This document shows, one piece after another, positions 1 to 8,248 of a stretch of DNA of 8,248 nucleotides; position 1 is the stretch's first letter; each line of letters begins with the position of its first letter. This stretch comes from a virus. Its lineage: Duplodnaviria > Heunggongvirae > Uroviricota > Caudoviricetes. The position numbers and the translations under genes are program-made. The stretch is from IMG/VR virus record IMGVR_UViG_2671180849_000023; one strand, written 5' to 3'. The notes under the pieces were generated by a model. That model saw nothing but the letters and a program-made list of their open reading frames with translations. It was not told the DNA's origin and searched no databases.

Positions 1-324
1 ATGGAAGACGGCGTTCAGGCAATGCGCGATTATCTTGCCGGACTGGATATCGCTTCGCCAGAGCATCAGGTTCTGATGAACGTAACAGCAAAAAGCGAGG
101 TCGCTCCGTCAATTATCAAAGAAAATCTCTCATTACACTTAACCCATACGGTGAAATGGACTGAATCTCTCGATACATTTCTGAATATGCCAACCCCGGT
201 AGCTTTCCTTGAAATAAGTAATAAGCCCTATTTGGGGAATATGTTAAATGATTTTGCTGGCGTGGTTCAGCAACGAGTTATGCATTGTCGTAAAGCATTT
301 AGTGATGCAAAGGTATTCAAATAA
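1..324 (+). CDS. 3' end of an acyltransferase gene (FabD/MdcH-like malonyl-CoA:ACP transacylase fold); 5' part lies outside the window
   Basis: Open frame running from the window edge to TAA at 322..324. The C-terminal 107 aa (…VKWTESLDTFLNMPTPVAFLEISNKPYLGNMLNDF…) aligns by eye with the C-terminal region of E. coli FabD (…VQWTKSVEYMAAQGVEHLYEVGPGKVLTGLTKRI…). Family assignment is from memory, not a search. Confidence 0.45.
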   Translation: MEDGVQAMRDYLAGLDIASPEHQVLMNVTAKSEVAPSIIKENLSLHLTHTVKWTESLDTFLNMPTPVAFLEISNKPYLGNMLNDFAGVVQQRVMHCRKAFSDAKVFK

Positions 325-378
325 TTCCTGATTATTTAACTTTTATTCGCTTTCAGGATAAACGAAATCTGATATACA

Positions 379-2196
<1,818 letters not shown>

Positions 2197-2199
2197 TCC

Positions 2200-2943
2200 A
2201 TGCATCGTATAGACACGAAAACCGCGCAGAAGGATAAGTTCGGCGCGGGTAAGAACGGTTTTACCCGTGGTAACCCCCAGACCGGCACACCTGCCACCGA
2301 TCTGGATGATGACTACTTTGACATGTTGCAGGAAGAACTCTGCAGCGTGGTGGAGGCATCCGGTGCCAGCCTGGAGAAGGGGCGGCATGACCAGCTGCTT
2401 ACCGCGCTTCGTGCGCTGCTGTTAAGCCGCAAGAATCCGTTTGGCGATATCAAATCTGATGGCACGGTGAAAACGGCTCTCGAAAACCTTGGTTTGGGAG
2501 AAGCGGCAAAACGAAATGTGGGCAACGGGGAAAACCAAATCCCTGATATGTCTTTCTGGACGGTTACTGGTGGCAATGGAAATTTTGTGATTCGTCAACC
2601 TGACGGGCTAATCATTCAGATGGTTACTGTAAGTATAAGCGGTCCAGTGGCGATGAATGGAATGACTGATAATGCTTATGCCATTACAGGTTCTAATAAG
2701 TCTTATATTGCCACAGCCACATTGCCCTTTGTATTTCCTAATAAGGTGCTGGGCGTTATCCCTCTGGTATCAACAACAGCTTATGGTGGTGTATCCAGTA
2801 ATATTACAGGTTCATACGCGACGGCGGTTTGTTCTTTTGCCGCTGTCAGGGGGAATAATACGATTGTGTTCAAAGTCGACAAACCACTGAATGCAGCCTT
2901 TCCTTCAGATACCAGCGTCTCAGCGTTAATCATTGGACGGTAA
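2200..2943 (+). CDS. Phage tail fibre protein in the currently expressed orientation (constant N-terminal domain to about 2502, then a variable C-terminal domain inside the invertible segment)
   Basis: ATG 2200 with GGAG Shine-Dalgarno 8 nt upstream. N-terminus [47 protein letters not shown] is the conserved N-terminal motif of Mu/P1/P2/e14-type tail fibres. The crossover site 2468..2503 lies in-frame, encoding …[11 protein letters not shown]…. Confidence 0.8.
2468..2503. repeat. Left inversion crossover site (pix/gix/hix-like), 36-bp perfect inverted repeat with 26-bp core at 2477..2502
   Basis: tgaaaacggctctcgaaaaccttggtttgggagaag is the exact reverse complement of 4421..4456. The 26-bp core ctctcgaaaaccttggtttgggagaa is an imperfect palindrome with central TT, resembling Hin/Gin/Pin recombination sites as I recall them. 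Confidence 0.8.
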
Positions 2944-2945
2944 GA

Positions 2946-3389
2946 ATGAACTCAGTATTCTTTTCACCCGCAAGTAAAAGTTTTTATCTGCAAGAATTGT
3001 TTCCAGAATATGAGGATGCGGGAACGCTTCCTGATGATGTTATTGAAATTACCAGAGAAACATATGAGCAATTTCTTGGGCTGCATCCAGAAGGGAAAGA
3101 AATTGGCGCTGACAGTTCAGGACGGCCAATATGGATTAATTCCCCGCCGCCTTCAAAAGAGGATGAGATGCTGGCGGCTGAAATGAAAAAGATATCTTTG
3201 GTTTCAGAAGTCAATACCTACATCAATACCCATCAGTGGCCTGGCAAAGCTGCTATTGGTCGTCTGAAAGGTTACGAGCTGGAACAATATAATTTATGGC
3301 TGGATTATCTGGACGCACTGGAACTGGTTGATACCTCCAGTGCTCCAGATATTGAATGGCCTACGCCTCCGGTAGTTCAGGCCAGATGA
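2946..3389 (+). CDS. Tail fibre assembly chaperone (Tfa) paired with the expressed fibre variant
   Basis: ATG 2946 lies 2 nt after the fibre stop, consistent with translational coupling. 147 aa, with the C-terminal motif …LDYLDALELVDTSSAPDIEWPTPP typical of Tfa proteins. Confidence 0.7.
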   Translation: MNSVFFSPASKSFYLQELFPEYEDAGTLPDDVIEITRETYEQFLGLHPEGKEIGADSSGRPIWINSPPPSKEDEMLAAEMKKISLVSEVNTYINTHQWPGKAAIGRLKGYELEQYNLWLDYLDALELVDTSSAPDIEWPTPPVVQAR

Positions 3390-3966
3390 CATCCGGCGCG
3401 GTGCTGGTATCTGTTGCAGTCACCGCGTCAATGTAATCCAGCACAGCGTTAAGCCGGGTTGTTTCTGCCTGCGTCAGCTTCCGCCCGGCCTGCAATTTCA
3501 GCTGAATCAGACTAATGGAAGCCATAGCAGCATCAATCAGTGACTGGCGCCGTACTTCTGCCGCGTCTACTGCGGCGTTATGCTGTGCCTCAGTATCGGT
3601 CACCCATTTCTCACCATCCCATTTATCGTATGACGTTAACGGGGCGATAGTGGTTGTATTTTCAGGGTAATCACCCGGAAGTGTGATTTCTTTTGATTCT
3701 CCTGTTTCGGTGCTATAGACGATTTCACCGCGATGGTCTGGCACATATTCCCATGAGTTAAAATCTGCAGAACGGCAAATTGCATAACCAGCTTTATATG
3801 AGCCAGGAGCATCTAAACAGGAACATGCCGGGATACCAACACCCACAGCAAGATATTCAGTTGATGTGGAAATATATTCCCGTGTTTCACCATCATAATT
3901 ATAAACGGTAATGTCTCCGGCCTTTGTGGCGATGAGTTCATTATTTAATACAGCTTTACTTATCAT
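3361..3966 (-). CDS. Alternative tail fibre assembly chaperone (Tfa') for the silent fibre variant
   Basis: 201 aa on the minus strand, with C-terminal …LDYIDAVTATDTSTAPDVIWPELPEA paralleling the plus-strand Tfa. Its ATG overlaps the upstream cassette stop in an ATGA arrangement. It lies inside the invertible segment. Confidence 0.75.
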   Translation of the reverse strand: MISKAVLNNELIATKAGDITVYNYDGETREYISTSTEYLAVGVGIPACSCLDAPGSYKAGYAICRSADFNSWEYVPDHRGEIVYSTETGESKEITLPGDYPENTTTIAPLTSYDKWDGEKWVTDTEAQHNAAVDAAEVRRQSLIDAAMASISLIQLKLQAGRKLTQAETTRLNAVLDYIDAVTATDTSTAPDVIWPELPEA

Positions 3967-4475
3967 GCAGCCCTCACAATATAATTAAAGGCGATGTTAC
4001 GGGAGCGGGTTTCAGATGCTGTGCGAACTGAGCGAGATGCGTCGAATGTCCAGTTATAAGCGCCATAACCCTCAATAATTGCGGCTTCCTTTAGACCTGT
4101 AGATAATACTTGCCCATGTTGACTAAATGGCCCTGAACTAAGTACGTCTCTAAAAAGCTGGGTACGCCCAAAAGAACCAACAATATTCTGAATTGCATCA
4201 TTCTGTGCAGATAATAAGTTACGACCAGAGTCAATCCCGCGCCCATCATCCCAGCCACGAATAAATTCACCGCGTAAATCTGGTAATTTTAATGTTGGGT
4301 AAGCCTTTGCCAGATTTGGGTACTTTTCAGAAGAAAATACTGCTCCGTTACATTTTAGCCACCCCGTTGGCGGAGTGGCGGAAGGCCACGGAACAGGCAC
4401 ACCAACGGGTAATGCCGAACCTTCTCCCAAACCAAGGTTTTCGAGAGCCGTTTTCAAACGAGCAAATGGCATCAT
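3963..4475 (-). CDS. Alternative tail-fibre C-terminal variable (receptor-binding) cassette, silent orientation; becomes fused to the constant N-terminus at 2200 after inversion
   Basis: The minus-strand ORF begins [18 protein letters not shown]…, so the crossover-site-encoded [11 protein letters not shown] lies at its N-terminus. The rest (153 aa) differs from the plus-strand variable domain. The ATG at 4475 lies outside the right crossover site and may be fortuitous. Confidence 0.65.
   Translation of the reverse strand: MMPFARLKTALENLGLGEGSALPVGVPVPWPSATPPTGWLKCNGAVFSSEKYPNLAKAYPTLKLPDLRGEFIRGWDDGRGIDSGRNLLSAQNDAIQNIVGSFGRTQLFRDVLSSGPFSQHGQVLSTGLKEAAIIEGYGAYNWTFDASRSVRTASETRSRNIAFNYIVRAA
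4421..4456. repeat. Right inversion crossover site, 36-bp perfect inverted repeat with 26-bp core at 4422..4447
   Basis: cttctcccaaaccaaggttttcgagagccgttttca; exact reverse complement of 2468..2503. Lies 46 bp upstream of the invertase start. Confidence 0.8.
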
Positions 4476-4501
4476 TCCTGCTTTTGTCAGGGAGATCTAC
4501 C

Positions 4502-5056
4502 ATGCTTATTGGCTATGTACGTGTGTCAACAAATGACCAGAACACAGATCTACAACGTAATGCGCTGAACTGTGCAGGATGCGAGCTGATTTTTGAAGAC
4601 AAGATAAGCGGTACAAAGTCCGAAAGGCCGGGACTGAAAAAACTGCTCAGGACATTATCGGCAGGTGACACGCTGGTGGTCTGGAAACTGGACCGGCTGG
4701 GGCGCAGTATGCGGCATCTTGTCGTGCTGGTGGAGGAGTTGCGCGAACGAGGCATCAACTTTCGTAGTCTGACGGATTCAATTGATACCAGTACCCCAAT
4801 GGGGCGCTTTTTCTTTCATGTGATGGGGGCCCTGGCTGAAATGGAACGAGAACTGATTGTTGAACGAACAAAAGCTGGACTGGAAGCTGCTCGCGCACAG
4901 GGACGAATTGGTGGACGTCGTCCCAAACTTACACCAGAACAATGGGCACAAGCCGGACGATTAATTGCATCAGGAGTTCCGCGCCAGAAAGTTGCGATTA
5001 TCTATGATGTTGGCGTATCGACTTTGTATCAGAGGTTTCCGGCAGGAGATAAATAA
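4502..5056 (+). CDS. pin: Serine DNA invertase of the Hin/Gin/Pin/Cin family
   Basis: 185 aa from ATG 4502, with GGGAG Shine-Dalgarno 7 nt upstream. MLIGYVRVSTNDQNTDLQRNAL… carries the catalytic serine motif VRVSTNDQ, and …DTLVVWKLDRLGRSMRHL…SLTDSIDTSTPMGRFFFHVMGALAEMERELIVERT…GRIGGRRPKL…VSTLYQRFP follows Hin/Pin closely. The track ORF extends upstream to 4292, but the conserved N-terminus sets the start at 4502. Confidence 0.85.
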   Translation: MLIGYVRVSTNDQNTDLQRNALNCAGCELIFEDKISGTKSERPGLKKLLRTLSAGDTLVVWKLDRLGRSMRHLVVLVEELRERGINFRSLTDSIDTSTPMGRFFFHVMGALAEMERELIVERTKAGLEAARAQGRIGGRRPKLTPEQWAQAGRLIASGVPRQKVAIIYDVGVSTLYQRFPAGDK

Positions 5057-5254
5057 AGACACAGCTCGTCGAATTCAAGAACGTGTGAGCCAATCTCATG
5101 ATGATTCATTATTTTCACATAGAGTCAATGACAAAAAACGGCTGCAAGGTAAACCACAACGATGGCTTTGTTAATTGATAGCGGTTTTGGTACTAAATGA
5201 TACAAATTAAAATGAATATCCTAGTGAATTACAACAATTTCAGGAGGAAATAGT

Positions 5255-5467
5255 ATGCCAAGAAAAACGCTAGAAAATTTGGTAAATGTTGCACGTCAGA
5301 CTCAGGAAATAGCGGATAAGAGAAGCCGTTTTTTCGGGTATCTTGAACAGCATGGCTTGAAGAGGAATGAGGATAGTGCTCACCTTTTTGCTATGCATTT
5401 ACGGTTGCAACACAATGAAAGAGATAATCTTGTCCATGAACTGATGTCCGGATTACATCATAAATAG
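5255..5467 (+). CDS. Hypothetical small protein (70 aa), no recognisable family
   Basis: ATG 5255 preceded by a strong Shine-Dalgarno AGGAGG (5242..5247, 7-nt spacing). AT-rich, convergent with the 114-aa/343-aa operon. Function unknown. Confidence 0.5.
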   Translation: MPRKTLENLVNVARQTQEIADKRSRFFGYLEQHGLKRNEDSAHLFAMHLRLQHNERDNLVHELMSGLHHK

Positions 5468-5501
5468 TGCATCATTCGAGCAAGAATATTATAAGACAAT
5501 A

Positions 5502-5524
5502 AACCAGCCAAAAACTGGCTGGTT
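5502..5524. terminator. Possible bidirectional hairpin terminator between convergent genes
   Basis: Stem CCAGCC (5504..5509), loop aaaaact, stem GGCTGG (5517..5522). On the minus strand it is followed by a T-rich run (TTTATTGTCTTAT); the plus-strand U-tract is weak. Confidence 0.35.
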
Positions 5525-5551
5525 GAACGTTAACTTTTTGAATTTAATCAA

Positions 5552-5896
5552 TTAACTTTGGTGTATGTCTTGGTAAGTCTCATCCGTCAGAGCCAATTTC
5601 ATGCAAATATCATCGTTAAGACTGACAATATCTTCGATCAGTTTATTGATCTCGAAATCGTTAAGTTTTGATACTGTTGCTTGAACTCGCCCCTCATCGC
5701 CAGTGGCATCAAACTTAGTCAGTTCCTTACATAATTCATCGAACCTGCTTTGTAAGGCATTTGGAATATCATCGGCTGTTTTAAGATGCCCAAGGCTAAA
5801 AACATACGAATTAATCAAGCGTTCTTGAATACTTCCATGGCCCGCAAGAGTAAGTACTGCAGTATGAAATTTTTCATGTGCATACTTTAAGGACAT
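5552..5896 (-). CDS. Hypothetical protein (114 aa), second gene of the cargo operon, no recognisable family
   Basis: ATG 5896 with GGAG Shine-Dalgarno at 5904..5907 (7-nt spacing), 51 nt downstream of the 343-aa gene on the same strand. AT-rich. No motif I can assign. Confidence 0.6.
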   Translation of the reverse strand: MSLKYAHEKFHTAVLTLAGHGSIQERLINSYVFSLGHLKTADDIPNALQSRFDELCKELTKFDATGDEGRVQATVSKLNDFEINKLIEDIVSLNDDICMKLALTDETYQDIHQS

Positions 5897-5947
5897 ATCT
5901 GGTCTCCGTGACTTATAACCTCAACCGACATAAATGGGGTTAAGTGA

Positions 5948-6979
5948 TTATTCTGAAACAATAGTGTTGAACTGACCTATAGAAACAGCACCCTTTTCAA
6001 TTACCTCTAAGTAACTGATTTTAATATGAGAGTTGTTTGACAAAGCGTCAACAATAGCTGTCAACTCATCTTGGGTGATAACATCAGCTGAAGCTTTGAT
6101 TGTGAAGCATTCGTCATTAGAGACCCTAACAACGTTAATATTAATATCCTGATTTGTTGGCCCTGTTCTGGTTACACCTTTGATGGAAAATATATCAGTT
6201 CGTTCTTTACGTTCTCTATCTACAGATTGTCGGCTGTTGTAGGTATTTAGGTCTTGTCGTGTTAGTTTCTCATTTCCTAAAGTCACGGTTTCGACAGTAG
6301 GATCAGCAGCTAATTGCTTCACTAAAGCACTTTTACCTGCTTGTCCGTGACTAGTAACTTTATCGCTAATCGCTGATTTCCCATAGATTTTATAATCTAA
6401 TGTTGCTTCTATGGCTTTGTTTATGCCATCGGATGTGGTTTTTGCAATTTCAACCTGCCGATCAGTTGCATGTCTTTCTGTTACGGCATTTTCTGAAATG
6501 TAGTGATAACCACATGTGCTGGCCGCGCCAACCATTGTGATTATAACAAGCATTTTCTGCCAGCCGTTCAGTCCAGACATAGTATCTCGCAAAAAATCAG
6601 TTACTGCGTTGATGATCTTGTCAGTGGTGCCTTCCGCATCACTAGAACCTTCGCTAATTTTAAAATTTATATCAAGTCGTTGCTTGTCTTCATTAGTCAA
6701 GCGTTGAAGATTCTGCGATCCGTATCGTATGGTTGCAAACGCCCGCTGTATCTCCTCGTTGAGCATTGACATACCAAACAACATTGCTGATGTAATTGAT
6801 GAATGATACCGCTCTCCTTTTACATTTATGTCTAAGGATGGCCAGCCTGCAAACTTTACGTTAGGGAAAATAAACTCTTTAGAATCAAGCCCCTCTCGGG
6901 CTTTCATTTCTTCCAGAAAGTTTAGAAAATCATCTTCACTACGGATCAGAAAATCAATCGAATCCACAGTAGCTTCCAT
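5948..6979 (-). CDS. Hypothetical protein (343 aa), first gene of the cargo operon, with one hydrophobic segment (aa 143..161); no recognisable family
   Basis: ATG 6979 with AAGGA Shine-Dalgarno 7 nt upstream; a long uninterrupted ORF. GC counted at 20/60 in each of 5941..6000 and 6001..6060, against 38/60 in smpB (7981..8040). Confidence 0.7.
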   Translation of the reverse strand: MEATVDSIDFLIRSEDDFLNFLEEMKAREGLDSKEFIFPNVKFAGWPSLDINVKGERYHSSITSAMLFGMSMLNEEIQRAFATIRYGSQNLQRLTNEDKQRLDINFKISEGSSDAEGTTDKIINAVTDFLRDTMSGLNGWQKMLVIITMVGAASTCGYHYISENAVTERHATDRQVEIAKTTSDGINKAIEATLDYKIYGKSAISDKVTSHGQAGKSALVKQLAADPTVETVTLGNEKLTRQDLNTYNSRQSVDRERKERTDIFSIKGVTRTGPTNQDININVVRVSNDECFTIKASADVITQDELTAIVDALSNNSHIKISYLEVIEKGAVSIGQFNTIVSE

Positions 6980-7034
6980 ATGAATATCCTTATTAAATTC
7001 TCATTCGGTTACTGTTTATTGTTGACTGATCAAT

Positions 7035-7063
7035 AAAAAAGCCCGCAATTTGCGGGCTTCTTT
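7035..7063 (-). terminator. Rho-independent terminator downstream of ssrA (minus-strand orientation)
   Basis: Stem GCCCGCA (7041..7047), loop att, stem TGCGGGC (7051..7057). On the minus strand the hairpin is followed by TTTTTTATTG; on the plus strand by the weaker TTCTTTC. Confidence 0.55.
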
Positions 7064-7188
7064 CACACTTGAGAGCCGCGGCTCCTTTGCGTATCCTTTT
7101 TTGTCTCCTCACCGTCTGGTCGGTGTCCTGCTGAGACTGCTAACTTCCTGTTTTTGTTGGTGTTGTCCTTACACCGTCCAATCATGAT

Positions 7189-7551
7189 TGGTGGAGCTGG
7201 CGGGAGTTGAACCCGCGTCCGAAATTCCTACATCCTCGGTACTACATGCTTAGTCAGTCTTTACATTCGCTTGCCAGCTGCGGACGGACACGCCACTAAC
7301 AAACTAGCCTGATTAAGTTTTAACGCTTCAACCCCAGGCAGGGCTTCCACGCGATCTCTTTTGGGTTTGACCTCTCTTGATCCCCGTCCTAAGAGCGGAG
7401 GCTAGGGAGAGAGGGCTCTAAGCAGGTTATTAAGCTGCTAAAGCGTAGTTTTCGTCGTTTGCGACTATTTTTTGCGGCTTTTTACGAGGCCAACCGCCCC
7501 TCGGCATGCACCTTGGGTTTCGCAAATCCCGTCGAATCCAGAATCAGCCCC
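7189..7551 (-). ncRNA. ssrA: tmRNA (transfer-messenger RNA, 10Sa RNA), 363 nt
   Basis: Reverse complement begins GGGGCTGATTCTGGATTCGACGGG and ends …GGGTTCAACTCCCGCCAGCTCCACCA (tRNA-like acceptor/T-arm with encoded CCA). The internal tag reading frame is at 7430..7462. Confidence 0.95.
7430..7462 (-). other. tmRNA tag-peptide reading frame (resume codon GCA through stop): ANDENYALAA*
   Basis: Minus-strand codons GCA AAC GAC GAA AAC TAC GCT TTA GCA GCT TAA, read directly from the sequence. This is the proteolysis tag of E. coli and close relatives. Confidence 0.9.
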
Positions 7552-7765: not shown

Positions 7766-8248
7766 TTAACGGTGGGCGTTTTTCATGATACGTGCTTTAT
7801 CCACCTGCCATTCGCGTTCTTTGATATCTGAACGTTTATCGTGCTGTTTTTTACCTTTGGCGACGCCGATTTTCACTTTGCACCAGGCATTTTTCCAGTA
7901 CAGGGAGAGCGCCACTACGGTATAGCCTTCTCGATTGACGCGACCGTACAATGAGTCCAGTTCGCGCTGGTTGAGAAGTAACTTGCGGGTACGGGTAGGA
8001 TCGCACACCACATGCGTGGAGGCCACGGCCATTGGCGTGATGTTAGCGCCAAACAGAAATGCCTCTCCGTCACGCAGAAGGACGTAGCTGTCGCTGATAT
8101 TGGCTTTTCCTGCGCGCAGGGATTTAACCTCCCAGCCTTGCAGGGCAAGTCCCGCTTCGAACTCTTCTTCGATAAAGTATTCGTGACGGGCGCGCTTGTT
8201 AAGCGCGATGGTCGCTGAACCAGGTTTATGTGCTTTTTTCTTCGTCAT
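7766..8248 (-). CDS. smpB: SsrA-binding protein SmpB (160 aa, complete)
   Basis: ATG at the window edge (8248..8246), stop at 7766. [56 protein letters not shown]… is the canonical SmpB sequence, upstream of and co-oriented with ssrA as in E. coli. Confidence 0.95.

Follow-up and report, generated by a model that had tools for sequence, protein, structure and literature searches.

A probable integrase-distal remnant of a phiNP/LLS-type prophage beside ssrA, with an apparently phage-borne tmRNA trailer and terminator

Gene content of the window

The window (the whole 8,248-nt stretch of DNA that was analysed, IMG/VR record IMGVR_UViG_2671180849_000023) ends on the right with two genes on the minus strand: smpB, a gene of the chromosomal backbone (7766..8248; a 160-aa ORF annotated as smpB in all matching genomes), and ssrA (7189..7551), the 363-nt tmRNA gene, which encodes the tag ANDENYALAA and was identified by ARAGORN and by Rfam (RF00023, 295.8 bits). 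On the same strand, the tmRNA end is followed by a 126-nt 3' trailer (7063..7188), which folding and alignments characterize as a structured, GGA-rich RNA, and by the intrinsic terminator of ssrA (7035..7063). The terminator has a 13-bp stem in the MFE fold and then UUUUUU on the minus strand, i.e., downstream of ssrA; a simple consensus terminator scanner missed this hairpin, which folding and an inverted-repeat search reveal. Two palindromes are found here, GAGCCGCGGCTC (12 bp, 7073..7084), which corresponds to helix 5 of the trailer fold, and CCAATCATGATTGG (14 bp, 7178..7191), which straddles the boundary between the tmRNA CCA end and the trailer. The cargo begins 57 nt beyond the terminator hairpin with ORF343 (5948..6979, minus strand) and continues with ORF114 (5552..5896, minus strand), which is hypothetical in the annotation of all relatives. 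An earlier note on this DNA had described a tmRNA end at 7189, a 126-nt spacer with a perfect 12-bp palindrome, a strong terminator, and a cargo operon. ARAGORN, Rfam, and folding agree with that description (minus-strand order: ssrA, 126-nt spacer, hairpin with U-run, ORF343, ORF114), and the palindrome is present as it was reported.

The remainder of the window contains phage genes and, at the left, unrelated DNA. ORF70 (5255..5467, plus strand) encodes a hypothetical protein (WP_001137529.1 in CD45 and EC1515). It is followed toward the left by a gene for a serine DNA invertase of the pinE type (4502..5056, plus strand; Resolvase and HTH_7 domains; annotated pinE, WP_000904997.1) and by an invertible tail-fibre segment (2468..4456) encoding alternative fibre C-termini and two tail-fibre assembly proteins (two Caudo_TAP domains, Collar, and Gp53-like_C). 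Perfect 36-bp inverted repeats at 2468..2503 and 4421..4456 flank this segment. A baseplate gene similar to ymfQ and Mu gp48 (1637..2196, plus strand; Phage_Mu_Gp48) lacks its first 21 nt and abuts an IS3-family insertion sequence of 1258 bp (379..1636, minus strand; rve and HTH_Tnp_1). The leftmost piece (1..378, plus strand) is a fragment of an ACP S-malonyltransferase gene from the ycdU locus and is unrelated to the ssrA locus. Each of the 5426 complete E. coli genomes that were compared matches some part of the window, and only two of them cover at least 80% of it.

A domain search found the Pin-type serine invertase and the IS3 transposase as the only recombinases in the window, which encodes no tyrosine integrase. 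Likewise, when the window was searched for the ssrA 3' end as a 25-mer with 3 mismatches allowed and as a 15-mer with 2 allowed, the only matches were at 7189, and there is no second copy. Both absences had been pointed out in the earlier note and hold under these searches.

ORF343, ORF114, and ORF70 have no match in Pfam, PADLOC, or NCBIfam. In PHROGs, ORF343 belongs to phrog_6191, a family of unknown function. Its homologues form 76 clusters, most of which are unnamed, and every named one belongs to a genus of the Enterobacterales; the Enterobacter homologues are again found at prophage ends beside an invertase or tail-fibre gene. The AlphaFold model of ORF343 (pLDDT of 63 overall) is confident only in the C-terminal 90 residues, which are predicted to form an OB-like barrel, and a Foldseek search against the PDB gave no match at an E value of ≤1e-3.

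The gene order of this end is reminiscent of e14, the cryptic prophage of E. coli K-12, which has ymfQ, a tail-fibre gene, tfa, the invertible segment, pinE, and an accessory gene at one end; the window genes are in fact annotated as ymfQ, tfaE, and pinE in matching genomes. What lies between the trailer and pin varies: this slot holds mcrA at the corresponding position in e14, hicAB and others in phage phiNP, and different genes in phage LLS. Such a slot would be typical of accessory or exclusion genes, and we claim no function for the cargo. Unlike e14, which integrates in icd and has intE on the side of the restored target, the window element has ssrA as its target, and it is the pin/cargo end that abuts the restored gene.

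Full-length relatives and the origin of the trailer

E. coli strain EC1515 carries the same cargo, pin, and tail-fibre end (99% identity) where a complete myovirus prophage of ~39.2 kb adjoins ssrA. This prophage encodes a P27-type terminase, an HK97-type head, a sheath and tube, and a Mu-like baseplate and has lambdoid early genes. The gene for its tyrosine integrase (L006 11032..12228) is at the far end; after it come RloB/AAA_21 cargo and then a 32-nt duplicate of the ssrA 3' end (L006 8733..8764). Directly past that copy begins a CP4-57-like island with its own P4-type integrase, which ends ~24 kb farther on with a third, 15-nt ssrA fragment and an ancestral-type trailer beside ypjA. Overall, the EC1515 ssrA locus is a classical tandem array. 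NWU_1 has the same layout with a 34-nt ssrA repeat, so that in both genomes a phiNP-type integrase and an ssrA repeat of 32 to 34 nt are found ~31 to 39 kb from ssrA. The integrase of EC1515 shares 92% identity with that of Citrobacter phage phiNP and 86% with that of Escherichia phage LLS, and the integrases of the full-length relatives have Arm-DNA-bind_2 and Phage_integrase domains. One of the two possibilities offered in the earlier note, that the window holds the integrase-distal end of a larger element, is borne out by EC1515 and NWU_1, which carry the identical end together with a far integrase.

The recombination site of this family is known from phiNP: in E. coli K-12, this phage was shown experimentally to integrate into the 25-nt TGGTGGAGCTGGCGGGAGTTGAACC with which ssrA ends (PMC6456863). 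This att core is an exact match to window positions 7189..7213. Displaced copies of the ssrA 3' end in EC1515, NWU_1, and PS1Thumoskin9 are 27 to 34 nt long, and the PS1Thumoskin9 alignment ends at window position 7222; the block of att identity accordingly covers the last 25 to 34 nt of ssrA, i.e., the 3' strand of the acceptor and the T arm (7189..7222, minus strand). The part of ssrA that lies 3' of the crossover in the window is a phage-derived copy. When the two prophage ends were compared in EC1515 and NWU_1 for other att repeats, only the ssrA core stood out, the next-best repeat being a single 18-nt match inside the cargo genes.

Free phage genomes give the orientation of the element. 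The LLS record (PQ299149) places a "tmRNA pseudogene"/attP between xis-int-gene31 on one side and gene30, the Fin invertase, and the tail fibre on the other. With the integrase and cargo before attP and the trailer, cargo, and invertase after it, integration leaves the invertase/cargo end adjoining the restored ssrA and the integrase adjoining the displaced fragment. LLS thus resembles the prophages in its layout (xis-int-gene31-attP-trailer-terminator-cargo-Fin invertase-tail fibre) and differs from the window in its cargo genes; its deposited annotation marks 20 to 39 nt only, as attP or pseudogene, and does not mention the extended homology in the trailer. LLS was isolated from lake water on K-12, in which ssrA is followed by CP4-57 and not by the trailer. 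phiNP (OR565852; Petty 2011, Magaziner 2019) shares with the family of the window the 25-nt ssrA core and the trailer after it and, like NWU_1, has its accessory and tail-fibre genes on the ssrA side, with int, an AAA ATPase, and a Dam methylase at the far end. In contrast to the window, it has ddi, hicAB, and an acetyltransferase after the trailer in place of ORF343 and ORF114, has no invertase annotated in its first 6 kb, and is a complete and viable temperate myovirus rather than a 5.6-kb stump.

The earlier note had taken as a rule that elements at the tmRNA gene carry a tyrosine integrase right next to the ssrA 3' end. This is true of P4-type islands such as CP4-57, in which the integrase is ~200 nt from the ssrA 3' end and only ~15 nt of ssrA are duplicated, but it fails for the phiNP/LLS family, as the gene order of LLS demonstrates. 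The two types of element share ssrA as their target and occur together in the tandem arrays of EC1515 and NWU_1, although the ssrA-proximal flank of the CP4-57/P4 type is unrelated to the trailer. The window itself was considered as a P4-type or CP4-57-like island, and this assignment was rejected: ORF343 follows the terminator, there is no integrase, and there is no repeat of the 15-mer.

The trailer and terminator have homologues on the E. coli chromosome as well as in phages. Alignment with the region downstream of ssrA in other strains, a comparison that the earlier note had proposed, finds sequence 88 to 91% identical to window positions 7029..7188 in 4204 of the 5426 genomes. SMS-3-5 has no recent insertion at ssrA, and there the homologous 158 nt are the whole ssrA-ypjA intergenic region, and the homology ends at the ypjA stop codon (90.6% identity between the trailer and this site). 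In K-12-type and O157 genomes, the homologue adjoins ypjA and is preceded by 15 nt of ssrA, which constitute the attR of CP4-57; in K-12 this fragment has a 1-nt deletion, delta-U357 (PMC10107115). Taken alone, the SMS-3-5 match would fit a scenario in which the spacer and terminator are plain chromosomal backbone and prophage DNA was put in just past the terminator, replacing ypjA, independently of ssrA-specific integration. However, this is largely refuted by the free phages: LLS carries the module directly after its att core, the 196 nt from this core through the terminator being 90% identical to window positions 7227..7032, and in phiNP the trailer directly follows the attP core. The trailer is contiguous with attP in both of these free phages and is therefore a phage-borne P' flank. 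EC1515 argues in the same direction, with two trailer alleles, one of the window type in the att-bounded prophage beside ssrA and one of the ancestral type beside ypjA, after two more ssrA fragments. Furthermore, the query has a best match of at least 99% identity in 47 records, of which 45 also carry the junction with ORF343. We regard insertion past a backbone terminator as very improbable.

The alignments instead indicate that 7035..7222 was supplied by the phage, with its ssrA 3' end, trailer, and terminator as the P' flank of attP. An unoccupied attB would accordingly resemble attP over ~190 bp, not 25 bp. Several features identify the hairpin at 7035..7063 as an intrinsic terminator, namely, the hairpin itself, the U-run, and compensatory changes in the stem between alleles (pair 141-149 is GC in 62 and AU in 16 of the aligned trailers), and phiNP has an entirely different terminator stem at the same position. 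The hairpin with its U-run is thus a terminator on the ssrA strand, and it would also insulate the cargo genes. We infer that the trailer-terminator module would restore normal termination and 3' maturation of the tmRNA after integration.

The trailer is widespread. Its core was found in 16 species representatives across the Enterobacterales, including Erwinia and Mixta, and in at least 120 IMG/VR viral contigs. In 27 of these contigs, only 23 to 36 nt of ssrA precede the trailer core; we use only this figure, as ungapped fragment lengths in the 120 contigs are confounded by indels in the full-length tmRNAs of other species. The tmRNA body is itself 93 to 97% conserved across 8 species, which limits what a comparison of body and trailer identities can say about horizontal spread. 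The alleles of host and phage seem to recombine: in the O157:H7 genome TR01, a trailer of the window type is joined to the ypjA flank within the terminator U-run and appears to be a recombinant. The chromosomal series pinH'-ypjA-terminator-trailer has the same order and orientation as pin-cargo-terminator-trailer in the window, and pinH' is 84% identical to positions 4625..4771 of the window pinE. The E. coli "backbone" of trailer, ypjA, and pinH' may therefore be what is left of an ancient phage of this type, in which case the trailer would be phage derived everywhere.

We consider it very probable that window positions 1637..7222 are the integrase-distal, ssrA-proximal 5.6 kb of a temperate myovirus of the phiNP/LLS type, truncated by IS3, immobile, and carrying a phage-borne trailer and terminator. 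The parent phage was of a type with an HK97-type head, a Mu-like baseplate and tail, and Pin-invertible tail fibres. The window has the ssrA target with TGGTGGAGCTGGCGGGAGTTGAACC and, from the core onward, the succession of trailer and terminator, accessory genes, and invertase with tail fibres. It lacks the far-end integrase and xis beside a displaced ssrA fragment, which are present in EC1515 and NWU_1, and its gene content points to a remnant of a member of this family and not to a functional member. In a search of the phage database for the cargo of the window, only the invertase matched, and the exact cargo or trailer junction was absent from the deposited phage genomes searched; we infer the attP of the exact parent phage from the prophage junctions and the relatives. 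The kind of element is already known, experimentally in phiNP and from annotation in LLS. In the mechanism that we propose, an integrase of this family, with an arm-binding N-terminal domain, would recombine attP with the last 25 to 34 nt of ssrA in a phage with the gene order xis, int, accessory gene(s), attP core, trailer, terminator, accessory genes, invertase, and tail fibres. After integration, an intact ssrA would be followed by the phage-supplied 3' end, the 126-nt trailer, and the terminator (7035..7188) and then by the cargo and tail genes, and the integrase would come to lie ~39 kb away, beside the displaced ssrA fragment.

Truncation by IS3 and states of decay

The insertion sequence at 379..1636 has the ends TGTAGTGG...CCACTACA, terminal inverted repeats, and both OrfA and OrfB (HTH_Tnp_1 and rve). 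Its flanks in the window are ACA and TCC, without the 3-bp target-site duplication of a simple insertion, which indicates either recombination between two IS3 copies or a deletion next to the element. On the prophage side, window position 1633 aligns to L006 42522, and the start of ymfQ is at 42501.

CD45, the nearest complete genome, has no integrase between ssrA and ileY and carries two IS3 copies, which are mutually inverted. Copy B, at the ycdU locus, has the 3-bp duplication (ACA/ACA), and window positions 1..378 are 100% identical to this locus. Copy A separates a 5' stump of ypjA from ymfQ', and its flanks (CAC/TCC) show no duplication, which implies a deletion of the 3' part of ypjA, any intervening island, and ~34 kb of the prophage, including int, xis, and attR. 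The junction in the window combines the left flank of copy B with the right flank of copy A, and, as the copies are inverted, this points to an IS3 × IS3 inversion or to an assembly join through the repeat; the left junction of the window could thus be an assembly artefact. Under an inversion and an assembly join alike, the CD45 comparison predicts no integrase or att partner beyond the left edge of the window. Very probably, an IS3-mediated event removed everything past ymfQ, including the integrase, xis, and attR, and a second IS3 × IS3 exchange (or the assembly join) brought the ycdU-locus fragment to the left.

The earlier note had stated that an ordinary intact island would be indicated if the spacer and terminator were conserved downstream of ssrA in island-free strains and an integrase/att pair lay just outside the window. 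The former holds, in that the spacer and terminator are homologous to the ssrA-ypjA region of SMS-3-5; the latter does not, since no integrase/att pair lies just outside, and the objection consequently does not apply. Full-length relatives with exactly such a layout do exist, and these are what would favour an intact element whose integrase and second att lie just to the left. However, the DNA at that side is an IS3 copy without target-site duplication, followed by a malonyltransferase fragment that belongs to ycdU in CD45; ymfQ lacks its first 21 nt; and the remnant is truncated in the same way in CD45 and PS1Thumoskin9, the closest genomes. An intact element is thus extremely unlikely. The second possibility offered in the earlier note, immobilisation by decay, also applies, given that IS3 cuts the element at ymfQ and an unrelated locus lies beyond. 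The remnant should be unable to excise by site-specific recombination and should have lost particle formation, as int, xis, attR, and the head and replication genes are absent.

Other genomes display related states. PS1Thumoskin9 has the identical IS3-truncated stump, displaced from ssrA by a second prophage whose integrase is 68% identical and abuts the 27- to 34-nt core. In genomes of the 042/AR24.2b type, the module is joined via a truncated pin to the body of a lambdoid prophage.

Conservation of the trailer as DNA and as RNA

The palindrome GAGCCGCGGCTC is not significant as a palindrome alone: the window contains 5 perfect 12-mer palindromes, compared with ~2.0 expected from mononucleotide shuffles. 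It does lie in a block that does not vary among eight trailers of hosts and phages, which were aligned with no pattern imposed, and helix 5, which it forms, is 100% paired in the trailer alignment. Its invariance in 83 unique trailers retrieved from databases is uninformative because the retrieval pattern demanded GAGCCGCGGCTC. The second palindrome, CCAATCATGATTGG, is kept in trailers of the E. coli type and not in the phiNP type.

It is quite possible, though somewhat short of probable, that the trailer is conserved as DNA, as the P' arm of attP with arm-type sites for the integrase, IHF, or Xis, the palindrome being part of one of them. The Arm-DNA-bind_2 domain in the integrase of the full-length relatives is consistent with this, as is a direct copy of 29 to 32 nt of the trailer segment GACAAAAAAGGATACGCAAAGGAGCCGCGGC, including the palindrome, in the P arm of phiNP and NWU_1 (P < 0.002 against shuffles). 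However, the repeat is not significant in the P arms of EC1515, LLS, and PS1 phage 2, and the phiNP and NWU_1 repeats count as one observation, because the two P arms are mutually homologous. In addition, the compensatory changes in helix 1 and the terminator suggest selection at the level of RNA, and the trailer is retained in chromosomal copies that need no arm sites. The trailer-terminator module probably does form the P' arm of attP as well, and a role as P' arm and a role as RNA are possibly not exclusive of each other.

Several features of the trailer do suggest a function as RNA. Its fold is more stable than those of shuffled sequences (z = -4.2), and helix 1, which encloses an invariant AGGAC loop, covaries (pair 15-31, GC:44/AU:27; pair 19-27, AU:37/UA:27/CG:15). 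The 126 nt contain 7 GGA motifs, with 3.7 expected (P = 0.013), and 6 AGGA motifs, with 1.45 expected (P = 0.0015; dinucleotide shuffles in both cases), and none of the other 126-nt stretches of the window reaches 7 GGA. Four of the seven GGA motifs are wholly in a loop or linker of the structure tested, a fifth abuts a stem, and the three that were not forced by the search pattern are kept in 78 to 79 of the 83 unique trailers. An excess of conserved GGA motifs in loops and linkers is characteristic of the sponge RNAs of the Csr/Rsm systems, and ACAGGAAGU in the trailer resembles the CsrB repeat, CAGGA(U/A/C)G. Furthermore, four different trailers gave weak full-length Rfam matches to members of the Rsm clan (CL00106), at 19 bits for RsmZ and 18 to 19.5 bits for RsmY.

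The trailer might therefore be kept mainly as a CsrA-binding, GGA-rich, terminator-capped RNA of ~150 nt released from pre-tmRNA, a small sponge of the Csr/Rsm type that phages bring into every lysogen. The motif excess, the covariation around the AGGAC loop, and the RsmZ and RsmY matches argue for this. On the other hand, the Rfam scores are far below the gathering thresholds (44 bits for RsmZ and 57 bits for RsmY), no family reached its threshold in the trailer, and the other leader and small RNA matches are generic matches to terminators. Only one GGA is in a classical hairpin loop, and the repeated GGAC and CCGC motifs could instead be DNA sites for an arm-binding integrase. In K-12, the native trailer is parted from ssrA by CP4-57, and a literature search on CsrA in connection with the ssrA trailer or ypjF found nothing relevant. 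Like CsrB, CsrC, RsmY, and RsmZ, the trailer is short and structured, carries many (A)GGA motifs in its loops and linkers, and has an intrinsic terminator at its end; unlike them, it has no evident promoter of its own and would be a processing product of pre-tmRNA, its binding of CsrA is putative, and its similarity to RsmZ and RsmY is far below the family thresholds. We consider retention mainly as a sponge unlikely. We are slightly more doubtful still of the broader claim that the trailer, on the E. coli chromosome and in every phiNP/LLS-type phage, would be a functional RNA cut from the very abundant pre-tmRNA and acting as a small CsrA-binding, sponge-like molecule.

For the remnant of a phiNP/LLS-type prophage that the window very probably contains, the absence of an integrase from an island adjacent to ssrA is not anomalous, as phages of the phiNP type place the integrase at the far end. 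IS-truncated stumps are common, with the cargo junction present in 45 complete E. coli genomes and in at least three states of decay. A short repeat alone is insufficient to define the boundaries of islands at ssrA, since attP and attB are similar through the trailer and terminator. Only the extended, structured, GGA-rich trailer common to host and phages might merit experiments. If it does act as a sponge, phages of the phiNP/LLS type would install or replace a decoy for a global regulator at each lysogenisation, and a trailer that binds CsrA would connect the Csr regulon with transcription of the tmRNA and carriage of prophages.

Cargo genes and the integrase-side slot

The cargo genes of the window (5255..6979) comprise ORF343 (5948..6979, minus strand), ORF114 (5552..5896, minus strand) and ORF70 (5255..5467, plus strand), and none of the three had a match in Pfam, PADLOC or NCBIfam. 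ORF343 falls within phrog_6191, a family annotated as being of "unknown function," and every homologue of it that bears a name comes from Enterobacterales, including some located at the ends of other prophages in Enterobacter. Its predicted structure has a long, helical central region and a confidently modelled C-terminal OB-like barrel.

Variable, defence-like cargo likewise occupies the space that separates the integrase from attR, the displaced ssrA 3' fragment. This slot encodes RloB and an AAA_21 ATPase in EC1515 (L006 8890..10841), a Dam methylase and an AAA ATPase in NWU_1 (L002 16887..19599) and also in phiNP, and a DUF4760 protein in PS1 phage 2 (L009 16945..17853).

The trailer as a possible CsrA-binding RNA and a partial copy in the P arm

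The 126-nt tmRNA trailer (7063..7188, minus strand) carries seven GGA motifs, four of which lie entirely within a loop or linker, and contains a covarying hairpin with the loop AGGAC. Together with a weak full-length similarity to the Rfam families RsmZ and RsmY, these features indicate that the trailer is possibly a CsrA-binding RNA. A perfect 14-bp palindrome, CCAATCATGATTGG (7178..7191), covers the tmRNA CCA end and trailer nucleotides 1 to 11. The window contains just this one 14-mer palindrome, against an expected 0.46; it could pair the CCA end within the precursor.

The trailer segment with the 12-bp palindrome (7073..7084) has a direct copy of 29 to 32 nt (P < 0.002 versus shuffles) in the P arm, the attP side toward the integrase, of phiNP (L014, about 9930..9962) and NWU_1 (L002, about 16865..16895). 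This copy, which was not seen in EC1515, LLS, or PS1 phage 2, may be an arm-type or accessory protein site.

An invertible segment and probable rearrangements

Perfect 36-bp inverted repeats (2468..2503 and 4421..4456) border a 2-kb Pin-invertible tail-fibre segment. Within it lie two assembly genes as well as two alternative C-termini for the fibre. At the left of the window (1..1639), IS3 (379..1636) links a ycdU-locus malonyltransferase fragment with ymfQ'. Because its flanks (ACA and TCC) show no target-site duplication and the two parental IS3 copies in CD45 are inverted and 2.1 Mb apart, this junction is the product of either a large inversion or a join introduced during assembly. In NWU_1 (L002 11693..16576), yggR, not the ypjA/ileY region, follows the CP4-57-like integrase beyond the prophage, a sign that the chromosome has undergone a large rearrangement, with one breakpoint inside the ssrA island array.

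Trailer and cargo in host genomes and other prophages

Between ypjC and ypjA, the E. coli "backbone" holds an invertase pseudogene, pinH' (CD45, L001 19992..20159), that shares 84% identity, as well as its orientation, with window pinE (4625..4771). The backbone order pinH'-ypjA-terminator-trailer thus mirrors the window order pin-cargo-terminator-trailer, and this correspondence in sequence and arrangement suggests that the backbone stretch is an earlier remnant of this type of phage. In O157:H7 TR01 (L011 2993..3160), the phage trailer allele of the window extends as far as the terminator and is followed by the ypjA flank. This pattern resembles a recombinant of, or a scar between, the phage and host trailer copies. 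In the 042-type AR24.2b (L156 7010..9395), a pin lacking its 5' end connects the same cargo-trailer module as in the window to the body of a lambdoid (essD/rrrD) prophage. Therefore, the module is common to different prophage backbones or decay products.
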